NCBI RefSeq assembly: GCF_044647545.1
Contig: NZ_CP172818.1
Source: Escherichia coli
GTDB taxonomy: Bacteria; Pseudomonadota; Gammaproteobacteria; Enterobacterales; Enterobacteriaceae
DNA length: 64,000 nt
Reading direction: 5' to 3' (one strand)
Shown piece by piece: positions 4,837 through 56,674 of the stretch. Position numbers and translations under genes: made by a program. Below the pieces are notes generated by a model that had not been told where the DNA came from, ran no database searches, and was given only the letters and a program-made list of their open reading frames with translations. The number at the start of each line of letters is the position of its first letter. The first letter of the stretch is position 1.

Positions 4837-4976
4837 CTTTATCCCTCATCGGAAAATGCGGAAATAAGCATACCCTGCCAGTTATGGTGTTGTCATCCGT
4901 CCACCCTCGCCACTAAACTGGAAGCAAGACCGTAGGCATTCCGCTTACGAAAAAATAACGAATTCAAGGAACTAAG

Positions 4977-8442: not shown

Positions 8443-9108
8443 ATGAACGTTTTCTCGCAAACTCAACGCTATAAGGCGTTGTTCTGGTTATCGTTATTTC
8501 ATCTTCTGGTGATCACCTCCAGTAACTATCTGGTTCAGCTTCCCGTATCCATTTTTGGTTTCCATACCACCTGGGGCGCGTTTAGCTTTCCGTTTATTTT
8601 CCTTGCTACCGACCTGACTGTGCGTATTTTTGGCGCACCGCTGGCCCGTCGTATCATCTTTGCGGTGATGATCCCGGCGTTACTGATCTCCTACGTCATC
8701 TCGTCGCTGTTCTATATGGGTTCCTGGCAGGGATTCGGCGCGCTCGCCCACTTCAACCTGTTTGTCGCCCGTATCGCCACCGCCAGTTTCATGGCCTACG
8801 CGCTGGGGCAAATCCTCGACGTGCACGTTTTTAACCGCCTGCGTCAGAGTCGTCGCTGGTGGCTGGCACCGACGGCTTCCACCCTGTTTGGTAACGTCAG
8901 CGACACGCTGGCCTTCTTCTTCATTGCCTTCTGGCGTAGCCCGGATGCCTTTATGGCTGAACACTGGATGGAAATCGCGCTGGTCGATTACTGTTTCAAA
9001 GTGTTAATCAGTATCGTTTTCTTCCTGCCAATGTATGGCGTATTACTCAATATGCTGTTGAAAAGACTGGCAGATAAATCCGAAATCAACGCTTTGCAGG
9101 CGAGTTAA
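8443..9108 (+). CDS. yhhQ: Queuosine precursor transporter YhhQ
   Basis: 221 aa polytopic membrane ORF. Confidence 0.9.
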   Translation: MNVFSQTQRYKALFWLSLFHLLVITSSNYLVQLPVSIFGFHTTWGAFSFPFIFLATDLTVRIFGAPLARRIIFAVMIPALLISYVISSLFYMGSWQGFGALAHFNLFVARIATASFMAYALGQILDVHVFNRLRQSRRWWLAPTASTLFGNVSDTLAFFFIAFWRSPDAFMAEHWMEIALVDYCFKVLISIVFFLPMYGVLLNMLLKRLADKSEINALQAS

Positions 9109-9180
9109 AGGTTCGTTATCAGAGTTGTGATAAGATGGATGAATGAGCCGTTATGGCCGTTTATCGAAAGGAAGAAGTCA

Positions 9181-9738
9181 ATGCGCAATCTGGTTAAATA
9201 TGTCGGAATTGGCCTGCTGGTTATGGGGCTTGCGGCCTGTGATGATAAAGACACTAACGCTACGGCGCAGGGTTCAGTCGCGGAAAGTAACGCTACCGGG
9301 AATCCCGTCAACCTGCTTGATGGCAAGTTAAGTTTCTCGCTGCCAGCGGATATGACCGACCAGAGCGGTAAGCTGGGAACGCAGGCTAATAACATGCATG
9401 TCTGGTCCGACGCCACCGGGCAAAAAGCAGTCATCGTCATCATGGGCGATGATCCGAAAGAAGATCTGGCGGTGCTGGCGAAGCGCCTGGAAGATCAGCA
9501 ACGTAGCCGCGATCCGCAGCTGCAAGTGGTAACCAATAAAGCCATTGAGCTGAAAGGTCACAAAATGCAGCAGTTAGACAGCATTATCTCCGCGAAAGGC
9601 CAGACGGCGTACTCTTCCGTTATTCTGGGTAACGTGGGTAATCAACTGCTAACCATGCAAATTACGCTGCCCGCTGACGATCAGCAAAAAGCACAGACCA
9701 CCGCAGAAAACATCATTAATACGCTGGTTATTCAGTAA
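9181..9738 (+). CDS. dcrB: Periplasmic lipoprotein DcrB
   Basis: 185 aa from [11 protein letters not shown]; lipobox LAAC; longer ORF 9127.. is an upstream extension. Confidence 0.9.
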
Positions 9739-9741
9739 GTT

Positions 9742-10959
9742 TTAAGATGATGAGATGGCCTCAGGTACTTCCACCGGAGGCCGTTTTTTTAATCGCCACG
9801 TCAGTAATAACGCGATTGCGACCAGTCCCGCCGCCGCCAGATAAATCACCGGGACGCCCGCCCAACTCATCACCAGCCCAGCCAGTGGTCCGGTCACGCC
9901 AAGCGATAAATCCATAAATACGGTGTAAGTTGCCAGCGCCGCCCCCTGATTTTGCTGCGGAACCGCTTTTACCGCCACTACGCCCAATGCCGGGAACACC
10001 AGCGAAAACCCCGCCCCCGCGAGTAAGACGCCGATTTTCGCCATCCACGGCATAGTCGCCACGCCAACCAGTAGCAGGCCGATTATCTCAACGCTAAAGC
10101 AAATCATCGCCACGTTTAAGCCGCCGATACGGTTAATGCCGTTAGGAAATAACAAACGCGTACCGACAAACGCACAGCTAAACAGCGTCAGCGCGAAAGC
10201 CGCACCGTCCCAACCTTTAGCGTCATAAAACAGCGTGATAAAGGTGGCGATAACGCCAAATCCGGCGGAAGCCAGTGCCAGCGCCATACCGTACAGCCAG
10301 ACGCGCCCAAGCACCGCGCGAAACGGCAGCGGTTTGCCTTTACTGGCTTTTACCGTCGGACGCGGGATCGCCAACAAAATGGCCACCAGCGCCACGCCCA
10401 TAATGATTAACGCTAACGCCTGCAAGCCGCCCCAGTGATAAAACACGACACCTAACGGCGCACCCATCGCCATCGCCCCGTAAGTGACAATGCCGTTCCA
10501 CGAAATCACCCGCCCGATATGCAGCGAACCAACCACGCCAACGCCCCATAGGGTCGATCCCGTTCCGGCAAAACTTTGCCCAATCCCAAGGATCACGCGC
10601 CCCAGGCACAGTAATAACAGGCTGATGACGGGCAGACTGGCGGTTAATCCTGCCGTCAGATACCCCAAACCGCTCAAAAAGCAGCCGCATAAACCGAAGA
10701 CGACAATCTTTTTGGGTCCCAGCAAATCGGCGTAACGTCCGGCATGAGGGCGGCTCAGCAAGGTGGCGAAATATTGCAGGCTGATAACCAATCCTGCCCA
10801 GAAAGCGCTAAAGCCCATCACATCATGGACATAGCCCGGTAATACAGCGAGCGGCAACCCGATGGTGAGGTAGCTGGCGAAGTTAAACATGACAATGGAG
10901 ACAATGCGCAAATTCAGGCGCAATCCGTTTAGCGCGGGTTCGGCTACGGGTTCGGGCAT
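9742..10959 (-). CDS. yhhS: MFS transporter YhhS
   Basis: 405 aa from MPEPVAEPALNG; 12-TM MFS-like hydrophobicity; stop only 3 nt from dcrB stop. Confidence 0.9.
   Translation of the reverse strand: MPEPVAEPALNGLRLNLRIVSIVMFNFASYLTIGLPLAVLPGYVHDVMGFSAFWAGLVISLQYFATLLSRPHAGRYADLLGPKKIVVFGLCGCFLSGLGYLTAGLTASLPVISLLLLCLGRVILGIGQSFAGTGSTLWGVGVVGSLHIGRVISWNGIVTYGAMAMGAPLGVVFYHWGGLQALALIIMGVALVAILLAIPRPTVKASKGKPLPFRAVLGRVWLYGMALALASAGFGVIATFITLFYDAKGWDGAAFALTLFSCAFVGTRLLFPNGINRIGGLNVAMICFSVEIIGLLLVGVATMPWMAKIGVLLAGAGFSLVFPALGVVAVKAVPQQNQGAALATYTVFMDLSLGVTGPLAGLVMSWAGVPVIYLAAAGLVAIALLLTWRLKKRPPVEVPEAISSS
9757..9790 (+). terminator. Rho-independent terminator for dcrB, embedded in the 3' coding end of convergent yhhS
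   Basis: GGCCTC...GAGGCC stem followed by a 7-nt T run (9784..9790). Confidence 0.55.
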
Positions 10960-49480: not shown

Positions 49481-49529
49481 CTAAAGGGGGATATGCCCCC
49501 ACGGTTTTACAAAACTCGCTTTATTTATG

Positions 49530-49635
49530 TCCGATGCGACGCTGCGCGTATTATCCCGACCTACAAAAGTTATGAAAATTCGATTTCAGAATAGATGTTA
49601 TTTGTAGGCCTGACAGGCAGTAGGGCATCAGGCGA
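49530..49635. repeat. Pair of inverted REP-like elements (BIME-like)
   Basis: GTCCGATGCGACGCTGCGCGTATTATCCCGACCTACA and inverted TGTAGGCCTGACAGGCAGTAGGGCATCAGGCG resemble the REP consensus. Confidence 0.6.
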
Positions 49636-50653
49636 TCAAAATTTTGATGCTATTTACACAGTATGCCGCGTACAAACAAACCAAAAAACAAAACCCCGAG
49701 AAAAAACAAAAAACAAAAAAAAAAAAAAAAATTCCAATTAAGCTTCACAGACAAATTTACTAAAAACGAATAACCAATAGAAGAGAAGCAATGCTTAGTT
49801 AATCAGCCATTCAGAAACCCCCACTTAACCAATACCAAACTTAATATTAACCCATAAAAAACACCACCAAAACTCAACATTTAAAGATGTACTGCCATAT
49901 CTTTTTAGGGCATAATATACTCTTTTATTTATCTTTATTCCCTCAGATGATTCCCTCATCACAAATACCCCTCCCACCCATACGCCGTGTTTATCCCTAT
50001 ATACCCAACATTATCCCTCTCATCTGTTTGATACAAAAGAATTCTACATTAACATTAACCACCCCAACCACGAATGATATTACTTAAATCAATCAAAACC
50101 GATGATATTCATAGTTACTATACTATCTACTATTACTCAAAGCTATTTTAAAAACCACATAAACTATAAATATATCCTTATCCTCTGAAAAACATAAAGA
50201 TACCTTAAAAAAACAAATAATTAACACTTTATAATTTATGACGGACTCATAATCATCAACGACAATCACCACCAATCATTTCCAATTTTACAAACAATCT
50301 CTTCTCATATCATCCTTTAAACACTTTTTTAAACAAAAAAACACACTTTAACCTGGCTCATTATTACACATCTAAAACATCACAAAAATATCACTTCACA
50401 CACTATCGGAGAACATCATAACTTCTTAAAATGAGCGCTTTTTGATAGTTGTTAACGTTTTCCTTTACGATACTATCACTGCCCTTTTTTTATACACAAA
50501 TATTACCTGGTGGAAATGAAAGGGAAGTTAAAGGTAATTATATCAGGAAGATATGACGCATTGTGTTTATTTCCGCGTAGAAGAAAATCCATTCCTGCTC
50601 TAATTCTCCGATTTACAAAAATTTAGCGAAATAGATGAACAATAAGGAATGTT

Positions 50654-51874
50654 ATGTCAATTGACTTTACCCCAGGTATGATAAATACATATCACGGCGA
50701 TATTTATAACCGCACAACAGATACCGACAATGCTAAAACACCAGACACACCGATGTGGCCTTGTGATAATCAGGAAGAACAGCAACCCATTAATTTTTCA
50801 TTGTCTGAAGAAGGATATAACGCTGAACAATTTGATTTAGCGCAACAACAACTCCAACAAATTAATGCGTGCCACACGAACACCACATATACAAATGCAG
50901 ACTACTCAAAAGTTGTGGCTCAACTTGTAAAACTTATTAATAACATTGAAACGATAAGTTCGACACCACTTACGCAACAGACACAATCAATACTTAATCA
51001 GATTAATAACATTAGATACGAAAAGAATAAAAACTCTGAATCTAAAATCATTGTTGTCTTTAATCCTAAGCCCAATAAGCCAATCATAACTAAAATTCTC
51101 GTAGAAGAGGGAATACCAGTAAGATTCAGTGTCCAAACCGTTTCTTCCGAAAATAAAAATTTTTCTGGGCAACGAACTGATTTACCAACTGATATAAAAG
51201 ATATTCAACGCTTGTACCAAAAAATGACAAGGTTGTATATTGAGCACAGTGAAAATGAAAACAGGATGAAAGTCTTTGCTGGAACCAACTTTATTGATTT
51301 CAATATGACAGGACAGGACCTGTCCGGGTTCGTTCTAACCTTGTCAAGGTTTTATTTCGAAGATTTACTTAATGTAAACTTCACTGACGCAAATTTTGAT
51401 ACTATTTTTTCACATAAGGAAAACCCCATCACAAATTTACATAAAGATGAACAATATGTTGACAAACAAATCAATGGTTTATTTTCAACATTATTAACCA
51501 TTAATGACAACTCTTTAAGAGCAAAAGCGGAAATTGTTTCGACAATAATAGAATTATTAGAAACCAGGGTAAACAATCTTTCATACAACGACATAATAAA
51601 ATATCAGCAAGAATTCCAAAAAGAATGTTACAAGCAAGTTAAAGATTTTACAACACCCTCTCGATACAATAGAATTAAAAAATGGGCACAAATGTCTGAA
51701 TATCAATTCGAAATATTTCAACACGATACGTTTCATCTTAAAAAAATGTCATACGCACCTTATTTAAAGAGATCGCTACCTGATGAAAAAACTATAAATT
51801 ATGGGGTGGAAATAGAAACACCAACTGGCAAAAGAATTCGCTTATCAAATCATTACCAGAATATAATCCCATAA
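50654..51874 (+). CDS. yhiS: Uncharacterized protein YhiS-like with pentapeptide-repeat segment (uninterrupted)
   Basis: 406 aa AT-rich ORF; no IS element inside. Confidence 0.75.
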
Positions 51875-52119
51875 TATTGAACATTAGCGCTTTATAATCA
51901 TTGAATAAAAATAGATTTTATGCACCTTTAAAAAAAGGCTATTTTATGGGGCGATGGATACTCATGTCACGCCCCAAAATTAACAGAATTAAACTAAACA
52001 GAAGGGATATAAACATCAGACAGGTTTACGTTACTATCAGGCATATCGCCTCAGAATCAGATGAAAACTATAAAGAAATATCTATTATGGTTTTAATATT
52101 TGTTGATAAGGATAGTAAC

Positions 52120-52686
52120 ATGAACATGACAAAAGGTGCACTCATCCTCAGCCTTTCATTTTTGCTTGCCGCATGTAGTTCAATTCCGCAAAATATCAAA
52201 GGCAATAACCAACCTGATATTCAAAAAAGTTTTGTTGCTGTTCATAACCAGCCGGGGTTATATGTTGGTCAACAAGCGCGCTTTGGTGGGAAGGTTATCA
52301 ACGTTATCAATGGCAAAACGGATACGTTGTTAGAAATCGCTGTATTACCGTTGGATAGCTATGCGAAGCCTGATATTGAAGCCAACTATCAGGGCCGACT
52401 GCTCGCCAGACAAAGCGGCTTCCTTGATCCAGTGAACTATCGTAATCACTTTGTTACCATCCTCGGTACCATTCAGGGTGAACAACCTGGCTTTATCAAT
52501 AAAGTCCCGTATAACTTCCTCGAAGTGAATATGCAGGGCATCCAGGTGTGGCATTTGAGAGAAGTGGTTAATACCACCTATAACCTGTGGGATTACGGCT
52601 ATGGTGCATTCTGGCCGGAACCGGGCTGGGGTGCGCCTTACTACACCAACGCGGTGAGTCAGGTAACACCTGAGCTGGTCAAATAA
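52120..52686 (+). CDS. slp: Outer membrane starvation lipoprotein Slp
   Basis: 188 aa from MNMTKGALILSLSFLLAACSS (lipobox); ORF track start 51901 is an extension. Confidence 0.92.
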   Translation: MNMTKGALILSLSFLLAACSSIPQNIKGNNQPDIQKSFVAVHNQPGLYVGQQARFGGKVINVINGKTDTLLEIAVLPLDSYAKPDIEANYQGRLLARQSGFLDPVNYRNHFVTILGTIQGEQPGFINKVPYNFLEVNMQGIQVWHLREVVNTTYNLWDYGYGAFWPEPGWGAPYYTNAVSQVTPELVK

Positions 52687-52838
52687 CACCACCGAAAGAT
52701 GCAGATGCTTTCTCAGCATCTGCATCATGCATTACATCAAATTAATACACAGTAAGCTAATTATTATTATAAGCCCTGTCCTGTTAATTACCTTTGGCAA
52801 ACTGATTATAAAGTTAATGTCCGCACCAGGAGTCGGTT

Positions 52839-53369
52839 ATGTTTCTTATAATTACCAGGGATACGATGTTCTTCACTGCGATGAAAAACATTCTGAGTAA
52901 AGGTAATGTCGTTCATATACAGAACGAAGAAGAGATCGACGTAATGTTGCATCAGCATGCCTTCGTCATTATTGATACATTAATGAATAATGTATTTCAT
53001 TCTAATTTGCTCACTCAAATTGAACGATTAAAACCTGTCCATGTGATTATTTTCTCTCCCTTTAATATTAAACGCTGCCTGGGGAAAGTACCGGTGACCT
53101 TTGTTCCGCGAACTATCACCATCATCGACTTTGTCGCACTCATCAATGGCAGTTACTGCTCTGTGCCTGAAGCGGATGTGTCCCTTTCGCGCAAGCAGCA
53201 TCAGGTTCTGAGCTGCATTGCGAATCAAATGACAACGGAAGATATTCTGGAGAAACTGAAAATATCGCTAAAAACGTTCTACTGCCATAAACACAATATC
53301 ATGATGATCCTCAATCTTAAGCGGATCAATGAGTTGGTACGCCATCAGCATATTGATTATCTGGTGTGA
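52839..53369 (+). CDS. dctR: LuxR-family transcriptional regulator DctR (YhiF)
   Basis: 176 aa with C-terminal LuxR-type HTH. Confidence 0.9.
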   Translation: MFLIITRDTMFFTAMKNILSKGNVVHIQNEEEIDVMLHQHAFVIIDTLMNNVFHSNLLTQIERLKPVHVIIFSPFNIKRCLGKVPVTFVPRTITIIDFVALINGSYCSVPEADVSLSRKQHQVLSCIANQMTTEDILEKLKISLKTFYCHKHNIMMILNLKRINELVRHQHIDYLV

Positions 53370-53399
53370 ATATTCAGGGTACTGGTAACGGTATCCGGG

Positions 53400-55092
53400 T
53401 TAATGTGTGCGATATGTCCCAGTATCGGTGTCTTTGCCGCGGGTACGGTTATAGGCCACATCAAGGCTAAACAGATCAGTGGTATATTTCGTCATTACAT
53501 CCCAGCCCCAGATTTTGGCGTTCGGGACGTTATACGACATAGTTGTCGCCGCCGCGAAATCGACGGTCGTGGAGATGTAATCCTTCGCTTTGGTATCAAA
53601 GTAGCTGGCTTTAAATTCCAGAGCATCATTGGACAACATCAGGTCATCAAAACGCAGCCCAAAACCGTACTCCTGAGTTTTTCGTTAGTTTCCGGACGTG
53701 CAGCGTGGCACCCAATAGTTGGTATAGAAGCGACCAATCGAGAAGTGCTTAGAATCGTTATACATTTCGCCCATCGTCGGGGCGCGGAATACCTGGGCAT
53801 ATGAGCCAAATAACATCAGCCAGTTGGTCGGGTTGATAGTCATCCCCGCACGAGATGACCATTTGTCAGCATCAACATCTTTGTAGCCGTCGCTGCTACC
53901 GCGATAACTGTCATAGCGGGTTCCGCCAAGCAGAGTAATCGGCAGATCGCGTAAGGTGATCTCATCCTGTAGCCAGCCGGAGCTAAAATAGATTTTGCTT
54001 GCGGGAAGCCCGTCGTCGCGCCGCCCGGATGTTGTTCCTGACGATAATACTCACCGCCATATGTCAGTAAGTGAGAAGCGAAACTGTCGGCAAATAAGTC
54101 CGGAACGGTTCTCCAGCCTGGCTCCTTTTGTTATCTGTTCACGATACTCGCCGGAACTCCCCGTGTTTTGCGCATTAATACGGACTTCCGACCAGTAAAT
54201 TTTTGCATCTGCATTTAACCAGTCGTTGCCCTGTGGGGCGAGTTTATAAGAAAGCTGCGCATCGCGTTGAATTGTTGAACGATCAACCATCGGGTTGCTG
54301 CTATCGAGAAACTGCTCAACAGTCTGCGGATTTTTTGGTTCACGCGCGTCGTTGTTGTAGTAACGCACTAAACCGCTCAGAGACTGGGCTGAAATCAATT
54401 TGCCAGGTCCCTTTCGCCAGCATGTTATTAATGGACTCGTCATTCGGCGCGGTTTCACCATTGCTCTGGCGTAAATCACCCCGATCGCGACTGGACCAGG
54501 CCACAATACCATCCAGATTTTCAGTTCGCCCAAACGCGCTCGCGCCTAATCCCAGGCTATGGTCCCCCGTGCCGCCAGTACCAAAGACACGAAAACCACT
54601 GCTTTGTCCTTCCTGCAATAAATCTTTTGCATCGACCGTATCGTAGGAGATCACTCCACCCAGCGCGCCACTGCCATACAGTAATGCTGAAGGTCCGCGA
54701 ACGATCTCAACACGCTTGATCAGCGCCGGATCGAGAAAAGTGCCATTCAGGTGTCCGGTATCCGTTCCCTGGCGAACACCATCGACAAGAACCAGCACGC
54801 CGCGATGATCATAGCCACGCATATTTACATCCTGACCGTTGGTTCGTCCGGTACCATCAAGAGTAATTCCAGGAACATGACGCAGCAAATCAGTGGCTGG
54901 AGTCGCCGTTTGATTTTCAGGAGCGGAAGTGTCGATAACGCTGACCATCATAGGCGCTTCGAAGGAACTACGTGCATTCCCGGTTGCCGTAACGGTCATG
55001 GTTTCAGTAGCAAAAGCAAATGTTGGCAAGGTGGCAGAAACAGCCAAAGCCAACAAACTCAAACGCAACGAGGTAAATTGCGGACGTGACAT
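53400..55092 (-). pseudogene. chuA: TonB-dependent heme receptor ChuA/ShuA-like, frameshifted and 3'-truncated
   Basis: N-terminal ORF 54340..55092 has signal peptide, TonB box ETMTVTA and plug domain; continues in other frames (54051..54533, 53400..53639); about 1.7 kb remains of an expected ~2 kb. Confidence 0.8.
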
Positions 55093-55375
55093 AGCGATTC
55101 TCCATGAGGAAAATAAAATGCTGGCTGCCTGGTTAATTGCAGTGCTGGCGAAAAATAAATTTATTTACAATTCAAATGATTAGATATCACCACGGGAAGC
55201 TATTAGCGTATATATCCCGTAAAATTGCCGAATATTTCTGATAATTCAGCAAAAGCACGCCCTCTTTGTCAGGCAAAGTAGTACGCCACGTCTGAAGTGA
55301 AGAGTGCTGTGCGTTTCCCTTACAAAAGATATGATTTTGTTATCCATGATGTCATATTTTGTTAAACTCAAACGT

Positions 55376-55394
55376 GATAATGAGAATTATTATC
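55376..55394. promoter_or_regulatory. Fur-box-like operator in the chuA-chuT divergent region
   Basis: GATAATGAGAATTATTATC versus consensus GATAATGATAATCATTATC (2 mismatches). Confidence 0.6.
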
Positions 55395-55722
55395 GATCAA
55401 TTTTTTATGATCAAGCTTTTTTAACCGCCATTAACACAATAAACAGGGATTATGGAATCTTATCCAGCATCAGAAAACCATCCTGTGTTTATGGCTATCC
55501 CCCACAACCTCATCACAAAACGTTGTCGTTAACAGTGATAATTTTCTCTTCTCTTTGCTCTGCAAGCCGCGATATCTCCGGGTTCTCAGCTTTTTCCCGC
55601 GCTGAAATTTAATCGGTAACAAGAACGTTCACGACGAAGCATCTTGATAAAAATCAAAAATAAATACGCTTGTAACGCCGTGCGTATTGAATCGACGGTT
55701 GTATTTCATATATAACTCAAAT

Positions 55723-55741
55723 GATAATCATGATCATTCTC
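55723..55741. promoter_or_regulatory. Fur-box-like operator upstream of the chuT remnant
   Basis: GATAATCATGATCATTCTC, close to the Fur consensus. Confidence 0.55.
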
Positions 55742-55845
55742 AATTTGATAAGGGTTCTCATATTATGCCAAGGATCATCACCAGGCCGTTTCTTTTTTCC
55801 CCACTGACGTTATGTATTTCAGCCGTGGCCTCTGCCGCGAAGACC

Positions 55846-56674
55846 ATGGTAAAACGAAAAAAATTGTTTACGGCATTACTGGCTCTTAGCTGGACTTTTA
55901 GCGTAACGGCTGCGAACGTATCGTGGTCGCAGAGATCGCTGACGGAGCTAATCTACGCGATGGGCGCTGGCAAACGCGTGGTTGGTGTCGATGAAACGAC
56001 ATCTTATCCACCAGAAACCGCCAGACTGCCGCATATTGGTTACTGGAAACAACTCAGCAGCGAAGGCATTTTGTCACTTCGCCCGGATAGCGTAATTACC
56101 TGGCAGGATGCAGGACCGCAAATTGTGCTCGAACCGACTGCGGCGCAAGAGTCAACGTCGTCACTCTGCCGCATATTTCCGCCACCCTTGAGCAGATGTA
56201 CGCCAACATTCGCCAACTGGCAAAAACGTTACAGGTTCCTGAACAAGGCGAGGCGCTGGTGACACAATCAACCAACGCCTGGAGCGAGTACAGCAAAACG
56301 TGGCGGCCAAAAAAGCCCCGGTTAAAGCCATGTTTATTCTCTCCGCAGGCGGAAGTGCGCCACAGGTTGCCGGTAAAGGCAGCGTCGCGGACGCCATTCT
56401 TTCGCTTGCCGGAGCAGAAAACGTCGCTACCCACCAGCAGTACAAAAGCTACAGCGCGGAATCGCTGATTGCGGCTAACCCTGAAGTGATTGTCGTCACC
56501 TCACAAATGGTCGATGGCGATATTAATCGGCTACGTTCTATTGCCGGAATTACCCACACTGCCGCATGGAAAAACCAGCGCATTATCACCGTTGATCAAA
56601 ACCTGATTCTGGGAATGGGTCCGCGTATTGCTGATGTCGTTGAGTCTTTACACCAGCAGCTTTGGCCGCAATAA
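55846..56674 (+). pseudogene. chuT: Periplasmic heme-binding protein ChuT-like, frameshifted
   Basis: Three frame segments (55687..56262, 56196..56468, 56300..56674) jointly encode a signal peptide and a class III periplasmic binding protein. Confidence 0.75.

Follow-up and report, generated by a model that had tools for sequence, protein, structure and literature searches.

We propose, in an evenly balanced judgement, that YhiS of Escherichia coli is a silenced, dispensable and slowly decaying accessory protein restricted to Escherichia, which carries a short beta-helical spacer or binding stub. The analysis concerns a stretch of 64,000 nucleotides from contig NZ_CP172818.1 (assembly GCF_044647545.1), called the window in the following. 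Here, yhiS is a single ATG-initiated open reading frame (ORF) of 406 codons plus stop at positions 50654 to 51874 on the plus strand, as taken from the ORF list and with 99.7% identity to the gene of FDAARGOS_497, the closest complete genome, which has an identical gene order. The continuous 406-residue frame claimed in the first-pass annotation was thereby verified: the coding frame is free of stops, whereas each of the other five contains 17 to 48. We envisage YhiS as a soluble and probably cytoplasmic multi-domain protein occurring only in the genus Escherichia, its solubility following from the absence of any hydrophobic segment. Its repeat stub would form 2.25 to 2.5 turns of a right-handed four-sided beta-helix. 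Placed between an alpha/beta domain on the N-terminal side and a helical domain on the C-terminal side, the stub may act as a small rigid spacer or as a surface for protein binding. The gene appears to be part of a block that is rich in AT, bound by H-NS/StpA and located at the left end of the acid fitness island, where it would normally be silent, presumably also in the strain of the window, and conditionally dispensable. It seems to be lost piecemeal across E. coli, probably with weak purifying selection wherever a copy survives.

The repeat-like segment comprises residues 208 to 252 (positions 51275 to 51409, plus strand), as delimited by a period-5 test, profile matches and an ungapped alignment. 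Every fifth residue of this segment reads F/F/M/L/L/F/L/F/F, i.e. nine pentads in register; the first-pass annotation had quoted exactly this string of 45 residues, but had estimated only about eight repeats in it. A nine-long run of L, F or M at period 5 was not obtained in any of 20,000 composition-preserving shuffles of YhiS, and when I and V are also allowed, 42 of the 20,000 shuffles reach nine. Runs at any other period between 2 and 8 do not exceed seven. Ten pentads are present in each of the other 16 aligned alleles, and no allele departs from the register, even at an identity of 64%. In these ten-pentad alleles, the i-1 position is occupied by D or N in six of the ten pentads, while the i-2 position holds T, S, V, A and T in five and K, F, Q, F and E in the other five. 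The segment is acidic (seven D/E vs. two K/R) and makes up 11% of the protein, placed between unrelated domains.

Kinship to known repeat proteins was analysed with a family profile built from 17 YhiS alleles, which was searched against all sequences of the Protein Data Bank (PDB) and against 1.84 billion representative proteins. The PDB search returned six matches, with Rfr32 (2f3l, E 0.0059) first and At2g44920 (3n90) second, followed by three QnrB1 entries with weak support (E 2.4); Rfr32, At2g44920 and QnrB1 all align to YhiS residues 202 to 256. Among the representative proteins, the profile found one full-length cluster, which is the YhiS family itself, its fragments, and 15 long proteins that matched solely via profile positions of approximately 178 to 328, mostly 204 to 277, with E values from 1.9e-8 to 1e-3. 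Ten of the long proteins were checked, and all of them are strong matches to the Pfam Pentapeptide family (E from 1e-36 to 1e-97). In a MAFFT alignment, the long repeat proteins align to the YhiS run without a gap and in register. At the sequence level, a kinship of the YhiS segment to pentapeptide-repeat proteins is thus supported.

Structure prediction gave a mixed answer to the proposed beta-helix. With the family alignment, AlphaFold modelled the repeat segment with a predicted local distance difference test (pLDDT) value below 50. After segments of repeat proteins had been added to the alignment, the value for the segment increased to 56-62, and the resulting model contains isolated beta bridges every five residues. 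In this seeded model, 39 residues superpose on MfpA at 0.9-1.2 Å, with Foldseek E values above 1. Compared to PF00805 proteins such as Rfr32, At2g44920, MfpA and QnrB1, YhiS shares the tandem period of five, the central L, F or M and profile matches in both directions. However, it has just nine to ten pentads, its remaining approximately 350 residues match nothing, its Pfam score amounts to half of the cut-off, half of its i-2 residues are atypical and its fold is predicted with low confidence. The repeat in YhiS is real but short and atypical.

Several observations weigh against the proposed role of YhiS. The pentapeptide and beta-helix reading, though it gained the profile kinship to true repeat proteins, falls short of the family threshold: PF00805, whose gathering threshold is 20.2 bits, scores the YhiS of the window with only 9.9 bits (E 0.74), and it gives a sub-threshold match in 16 of the 17 alleles (best E 0.037), with no allele reaching the threshold, so that YhiS is formally not a member of PF00805. 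Furthermore, at half of the inward-facing i-2 positions a bulky or polar residue (K, F, Q, F, E) takes the place of A, C, S, T or V. The high synonymous divergence of the yhiS block described below is explained neither by simple relaxed constraint nor by the proposed role or any rival explanation, and the available phenotype and expression data from K-12 derive from a broken copy of the gene. The sub-threshold Pfam score, the irregular i-2 positions and the low-confidence fold could also mean that the likeness to pentapeptide repeats is a chance product of a composition rich in N, I, T and F and biased to AT. We regard this as quite improbable, in view of the shuffles, of the alignment of three different repeat proteins to the same 50 residues, of library-wide E values down to 1.9e-8 and of the conserved register.

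The closest matches to the segment come from large proteins. The best-scoring relatives (P0150, P0154, P0160, P0163 and P0168) carry the IMG label "YjbI with pentapeptide repeats", and in P0150-type proteins a unit of approximately 70 residues, consisting of KDLxG, about ten pentads and FTxEQLYSTKSYxDKDL, aligns through YhiS residues 204 to 277 including the linker. P0150-type proteins contain four to nine such modules in tandem, YhiS a single one. Those with a source label stem from metagenomes, one from an Acidimicrobiia metagenome-assembled genome. Since individual module stretches score at most 25 bits, common descent of YhiS with these modules is not established. The large proteins P0150, P0154, P0160, P0165, P0168, P0171 and P0177, several of them known from metagenomes only, are built from tandem modules of about 70 residues with around ten pentads per module, joined by a conserved FTxEQLYSTKSYxDKDLxG linker; among these seven, one has a near-threshold PEP-CTERM match at its end and another a Swt1-like HEPN domain.

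The first-pass annotation had linked the repeat to DNA-mimic or effector-like proteins. Protection of gyrase or topoisomerase through DNA mimicry, as by Qnr, MfpA and AlbG, could be suspected from the QnrB1 entries among the weak PDB matches and from the acidic character of the segment. MfpA and Qnr comprise roughly eight or more coils and act as dimers. The nine or ten pentads of YhiS correspond to only 2.25-2.5 coils, which cannot imitate a DNA duplex like the long Qnr and MfpA dimers, and the repeat is a minor internal part of the protein with no hint of a dimeric rod. DNA mimicry was therefore rejected on length and is in our view barely credible. In practical terms, work on YhiS should use an intact allele instead of K-12 and should seek binding partners rather than DNA mimicry.

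The comparison with pentapeptide-repeat effectors, which had also been suggested, revealed a short pentad run in common with EspY3 and no sequence similarity outside the repeat. Like EspY3 of enterohaemorrhagic E. coli (EHEC) and PipB and PipB2 of Salmonella, YhiS is an enterobacterial protein with a short internal run of pentads (PMC6313403). By analogy, YhiS could be or could have been a type III effector of the locus of enterocyte effacement (LEE) or of the E. coli type III secretion system 2 (ETT2). The stub would then work in the manner of EspY3 or PipB2, and the secretion signal would reside in the disordered N-terminus. Runs of eight and nine pentads occur in EspY3, which is a proven type III effector of EHEC, and PipB2 has approximately 30 pentads (PMC6313403). 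The polar YhiS N-terminus is predicted to be disordered with its first 24 residues largely invariant, and the gene is AT-rich, H-NS-bound (PMC3661553), often a pseudogene and without Sec signal. We nevertheless consider an effector unlikely. An exhaustive search detected no likeness to any effector outside the generic repeat, and the acidic residues D4 and D16 are among the first residues. The WEX5F motif of the SopD/EspY N-terminal domain was not seen in YhiS (by eye only). Moreover, yhiS does not adjoin a secretion locus in the window and is found in almost every E. coli, with non-pathogens, commensals and K-12 among them.

Outside the repeat, the predicted protein of 47.3 kDa (pI 5.7) is hydrophilic, with a grand average of hydropathy (GRAVY) of -0.67, and hydropathy analysis gave neither a transmembrane segment nor a signal peptide (19-residue maximum 0.92). 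The N-terminal approximately 56 residues (50654 to 50821, plus strand) are acidic (pI 4.05), rich in S, T, N, Q and P and predicted to be disordered, with pLDDT values of 23-44 in both AlphaFold models; residues 1 to 24 are largely invariant across the aligned alleles. They are followed at residues 57 to 206 (50822 to 51271, plus strand) by helices, a four- to five-stranded beta sheet and a long helix in a model of moderate confidence. Behind the repeat, residues 266 to 360 (51449 to 51733, plus strand) are predicted as a C-terminal domain of six helices (pLDDT 68-84), a bundle with generic alpha-solenoid matches only. The strongly conserved C-terminal tail of 26 residues (51794 to 51871, plus strand; conserved columns 381-406) is a predicted beta hairpin with strands at 384-388 and 394-398. 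The two AlphaFold runs reached mean pLDDT values of 54.7 and 46.3, and Foldseek found no PDB match to the YhiS model at E below 0.1. Scans of YhiS against NCBIfam, PADLOC and PHROGs returned nothing meaningful, and its other Pfam matches (UL40, RHG29_45_N and TMP_4) were dismissed as noise (E above 0.1).

Of 5426 complete E. coli genomes, 5414 (99.8%) have the yhiS locus, 125 of them at 99% identity or more to the window and 4651 at 80-90%. All source-labelled YhiS protein homologues belong to Escherichia or Shigella, and the profile search of 1.84 billion representative proteins found no full-length relative outside Escherichia. A 65% identical allele of 410 residues, labelled MULTISPECIES Escherichia or Escherichia sp., occupies the same place between arsC and slp. 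The assumption of a horizontally acquired gene is therefore plausible, but the acquisition would be old in view of the near-universal locus and of this distant allele in place, and no donor or relative outside the genus was found.

For a survey of gene decay, we used 30 evenly spaced rows of the complete-genome list and translated each copy; 29 were examined and one was left out. An intact yhiS of 407 residues was found in 12 of the 29 genomes (approximately 41%). The other 17 (59%) are disrupted by at least six kinds of lesion: a stop at 371 residues (O157:H7 type) in two genomes, a frameshift giving approximately 281 residues in five, a stop at 104 or 43 residues in two, the IS5 insertion known from K-12 in two, and partial deletions, for example in ATCC 25922, in six. 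The dispensability of yhiS is concluded from these lesions. Thus, the statement that yhiS is intact in the window is correct with respect to the open frame, but it does not distinguish this strain. The accompanying statement that K-12 yhiS is split by IS5 was confirmed in the K-12 strains PG20180052 and TG1, where the yhiS match consists of two pieces around the IS5 transposase, both annotated as pseudogene by the Prokaryotic Genome Annotation Pipeline (PGAP), and the split is also described in the literature (PMC11677980, PMC3661553). At locus L007 (NZ_AP041805.1, 3755-4978), PGAP reports a frameshifted gene that ends at 4871, although its translation gives an ORF of 407 residues without any break. 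The flag was apparently set because the gene was judged against a 371-residue reference of the O157 type; hence, pseudogene flags at the yhiS locus are unreliable without translation.

The frequency and diversity of lesions could also indicate that yhiS is a relic without present function, whose repeat is a fossil and whose open frames were merely not yet hit, and we regard this as possible though doubtful. Consistent with a relic, the ratio of nonsynonymous to synonymous substitutions (dN/dS) reaches 0.64-0.68 between close alleles, codons 331-375 evolve fastest and under the weakest constraint (pN/pS 0.8-1.2), the non-coding upstream region equals the gene in divergence, and yhiS is a silenced H-NS/StpA target (PMC3661553; bioRxiv 10.64898/2026.02.10.705075). 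However, dN/dS is significantly below 1. Within E. coli it amounts to 0.37-0.68 at a synonymous divergence (dS) of 0.08-0.29 (Fisher p 1e-7), and between the window and the 410-residue allele to 0.33 at dS 0.59 (Fisher p 2e-14). Moreover, a frame of 407-410 codons has been held at 33% G+C across dS values up to 0.59, without the stops that fill the other frames, and the N- and C-terminal ends are conserved. The strongest constraint acts on codons 181-300, which include the repeat (pN/pS 0.21-0.36). The silenced and slowly decaying accessory protein remains our preferred interpretation.

The divergence of the yhiS block, i.e. the gene and approximately 300 bp upstream of it, is sharply bounded. 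Compared to other alleles, yhiS of the window has 86.6-94% DNA identity, whereas slp has 98.6-100% and dctR 97.4-99.6%; the upstream 300 bp are as divergent as the gene, with 75-99% identity in 150-nt windows. Sliding identity against L006, L009, L010 and L025 places the right-hand boundary of the hyper-divergent block, which is abrupt, at positions of approximately 51950 to 51990. To the left of it, the identity to most other alleles is 75-94%. The slp promoter, slp and dctR on its right side have 94-100%, and hardly any 150-nt window there falls below 97%. The strain of the 410-residue allele encodes the same Slp and DctR proteins as the window, with a dN/dS of 0 for both genes and dS values of 0.059 for slp and 0.018 for dctR. 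The dS of the yhiS block (0.2-0.6) exceeds that of slp-dctR (0.02-0.06) by about 3 to 30 times, depending on the pair, and the yhiS alleles look mosaic. As diverged mosaic alleles and recurrent knock-outs adjoin the nearly invariant slp-dctR region, the block may represent an ancient polymorphism kept in Escherichia by balancing or fluctuating selection, which we hold to be rather unlikely. If true, YhiS would be recognised by an external agent such as host, phage or competitor, variation and loss would both have been favoured repeatedly, and the repeat stub would provide the surface that recognises or is recognised. In any case, the block is a small divergence hot spot on which balancing selection and relaxed constraint could be tested against each other, and its neighbours rank among the most conserved genes of the acid fitness island. 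The Slp protein was WP_001057453.1 in ten of the eleven loci inspected for slp; the K-12 strain differs.

The composition and the literature are consistent with silencing. The claimed AT-richness of yhiS could be confirmed: its G+C content is 33% (0.30-0.36 in 500-nt windows across the gene), compared to 51-55% in the flanking arsB/arsC and chuA. The intergenic region of arsC and yhiS in K-12 is listed among the H-NS-associated "promoter islands" (PMC3661553), and yhiS is named among the high-affinity sites of StpA/H-NS (bioRxiv 10.64898/2026.02.10.705075). In these respects, yhiS resembles other AT-rich accessory genes silenced by H-NS; however, it is not strain-specific and has a fixed chromosomal position in 99.8% of the complete E. 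coli genomes. In K-12, yhiS did not respond to YdeO (PMC4222967), and its deletion left the minimal inhibitory concentration (MIC) of chlorhexidine unchanged (PMC8170033). The genes of the acid fitness island, from slp to gadA, are characterised by co-regulation through EvgA-YdeO-GadE together with co-conservation, a combination that yhiS does not show. Our literature search found no functional study of an intact yhiS allele. This E. coli "y-gene" is largely unstudied because its K-12 copy is broken, and the present result is a modest gain in annotation that changes no established view by itself.

Regarding the locus, the gene order in the window is arsB, arsC, a gap of 1.17 kb, yhiS, slp, dctR and fragments of chuA. 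An alignment of four upstream regions defined a region common to all alleles (50339 to 50653, plus strand), which contains the presumed promoter and the ribosome-binding site, AAGGA at 50644-50648, five bases 5' of the yhiS ATG. A regulatory scan gave promoter-like sites around yhiS at a frequency not above that of shuffled sequences and no terminator-like site 3' of the gene.

The yhiS allele of the window differs from all others by a private 3-bp deletion. In comparison to L001, TTA is lost from AAATTTATTTGAT at positions 51394 to 51395 (plus strand). Pentad 9 thereby loses its central residue, Leu248, so that the run is shortened from ten pentads to nine and YhiS has 406 instead of 407 residues; the leucine is kept in all 16 other alleles. 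The exact 406-residue sequence (WP_400165082.1) is on record from one genome only. This deletion should be treated with caution because the local assembly quality of the window is doubtful, given a G-depleted tract upstream of yhiS together with garbled patches and homopolymer indels in the chu genes.

In the chu region, the window lacks chuS and a 3' portion of chuA compared to FDAARGOS_497 (positions 8974-10367 of the latter), with the junction at approximately 53369. Over 3.2 kb, the remaining chuA-chuT region (53368-56587) differs from the same genome by 24 mismatches and 33 gap openings, which take the form of clustered multi-base scrambles and homopolymer indels, and chuA is split into several ORFs. 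This pattern resembles an unpolished long-read consensus, although it could also be a real pseudogene.

The G-depleted tract of about 700 bp (49651-50400) has a plus-strand composition of 2-9% G, 20-30% C and 32-53% A, which is unique in the window. It starts after a poly-A/C run at 49681-49740, and its part from 49780 to 50338 aligns to the 3' half of the "permease" gene between arsC and yhiS of FDAARGOS_497, retaining 15% of the G residues of that gene compared to 50-67% of A, C and T, with many short deletions. Megablast against the 5,426 complete E. coli genomes gave no match, and sensitive blastn just approximately 150 bp at 75-77% identity. G-to-A hypermutation was tried as an explanation and rejected, as the score of the alignment to the permease region of FDAARGOS_497 after collapsing G to A (472) differs little from that of the C-to-T control (444; raw 358), and simple deamination was rejected because G was replaced not only by A but equally by C, T and gaps. 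Slow decay cannot explain the tract either, because its flanks are nearly unchanged: the 4,246 bp upstream are 100% and positions 50339-53369 are 99.8% identical to FDAARGOS_497. The tract is either an assembly artefact or the product of an unexplained local process.

In the same interval, 1,693 bp of FDAARGOS_497, which encode an ArsR/SmtB regulator and the permease, are replaced in the window by 838 bp that include the G-depleted tract. The first approximately 185 bp after arsC (49487-49671) are like the K-12-type sequence downstream of arsC and not like FDAARGOS_497; the spacer between arsC and yhiS is therefore a patchwork, as these K-12-like 185 bp follow 4.2 kb identical to FDAARGOS_497. 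The ArsR/SmtB-family regulator and the 333-residue "permease" are variably present between arsC and yhiS (L001, 4247-5675; also L005-L008, L010 and L011). The pair is absent in K-12, NT1F10 and O157:H7, degraded in the window, cut by ISKpn26 in 1919D62, and present in FDAARGOS_497, FDAARGOS_1287, JNE070796, NWU_1, CP52E and 36C_1.
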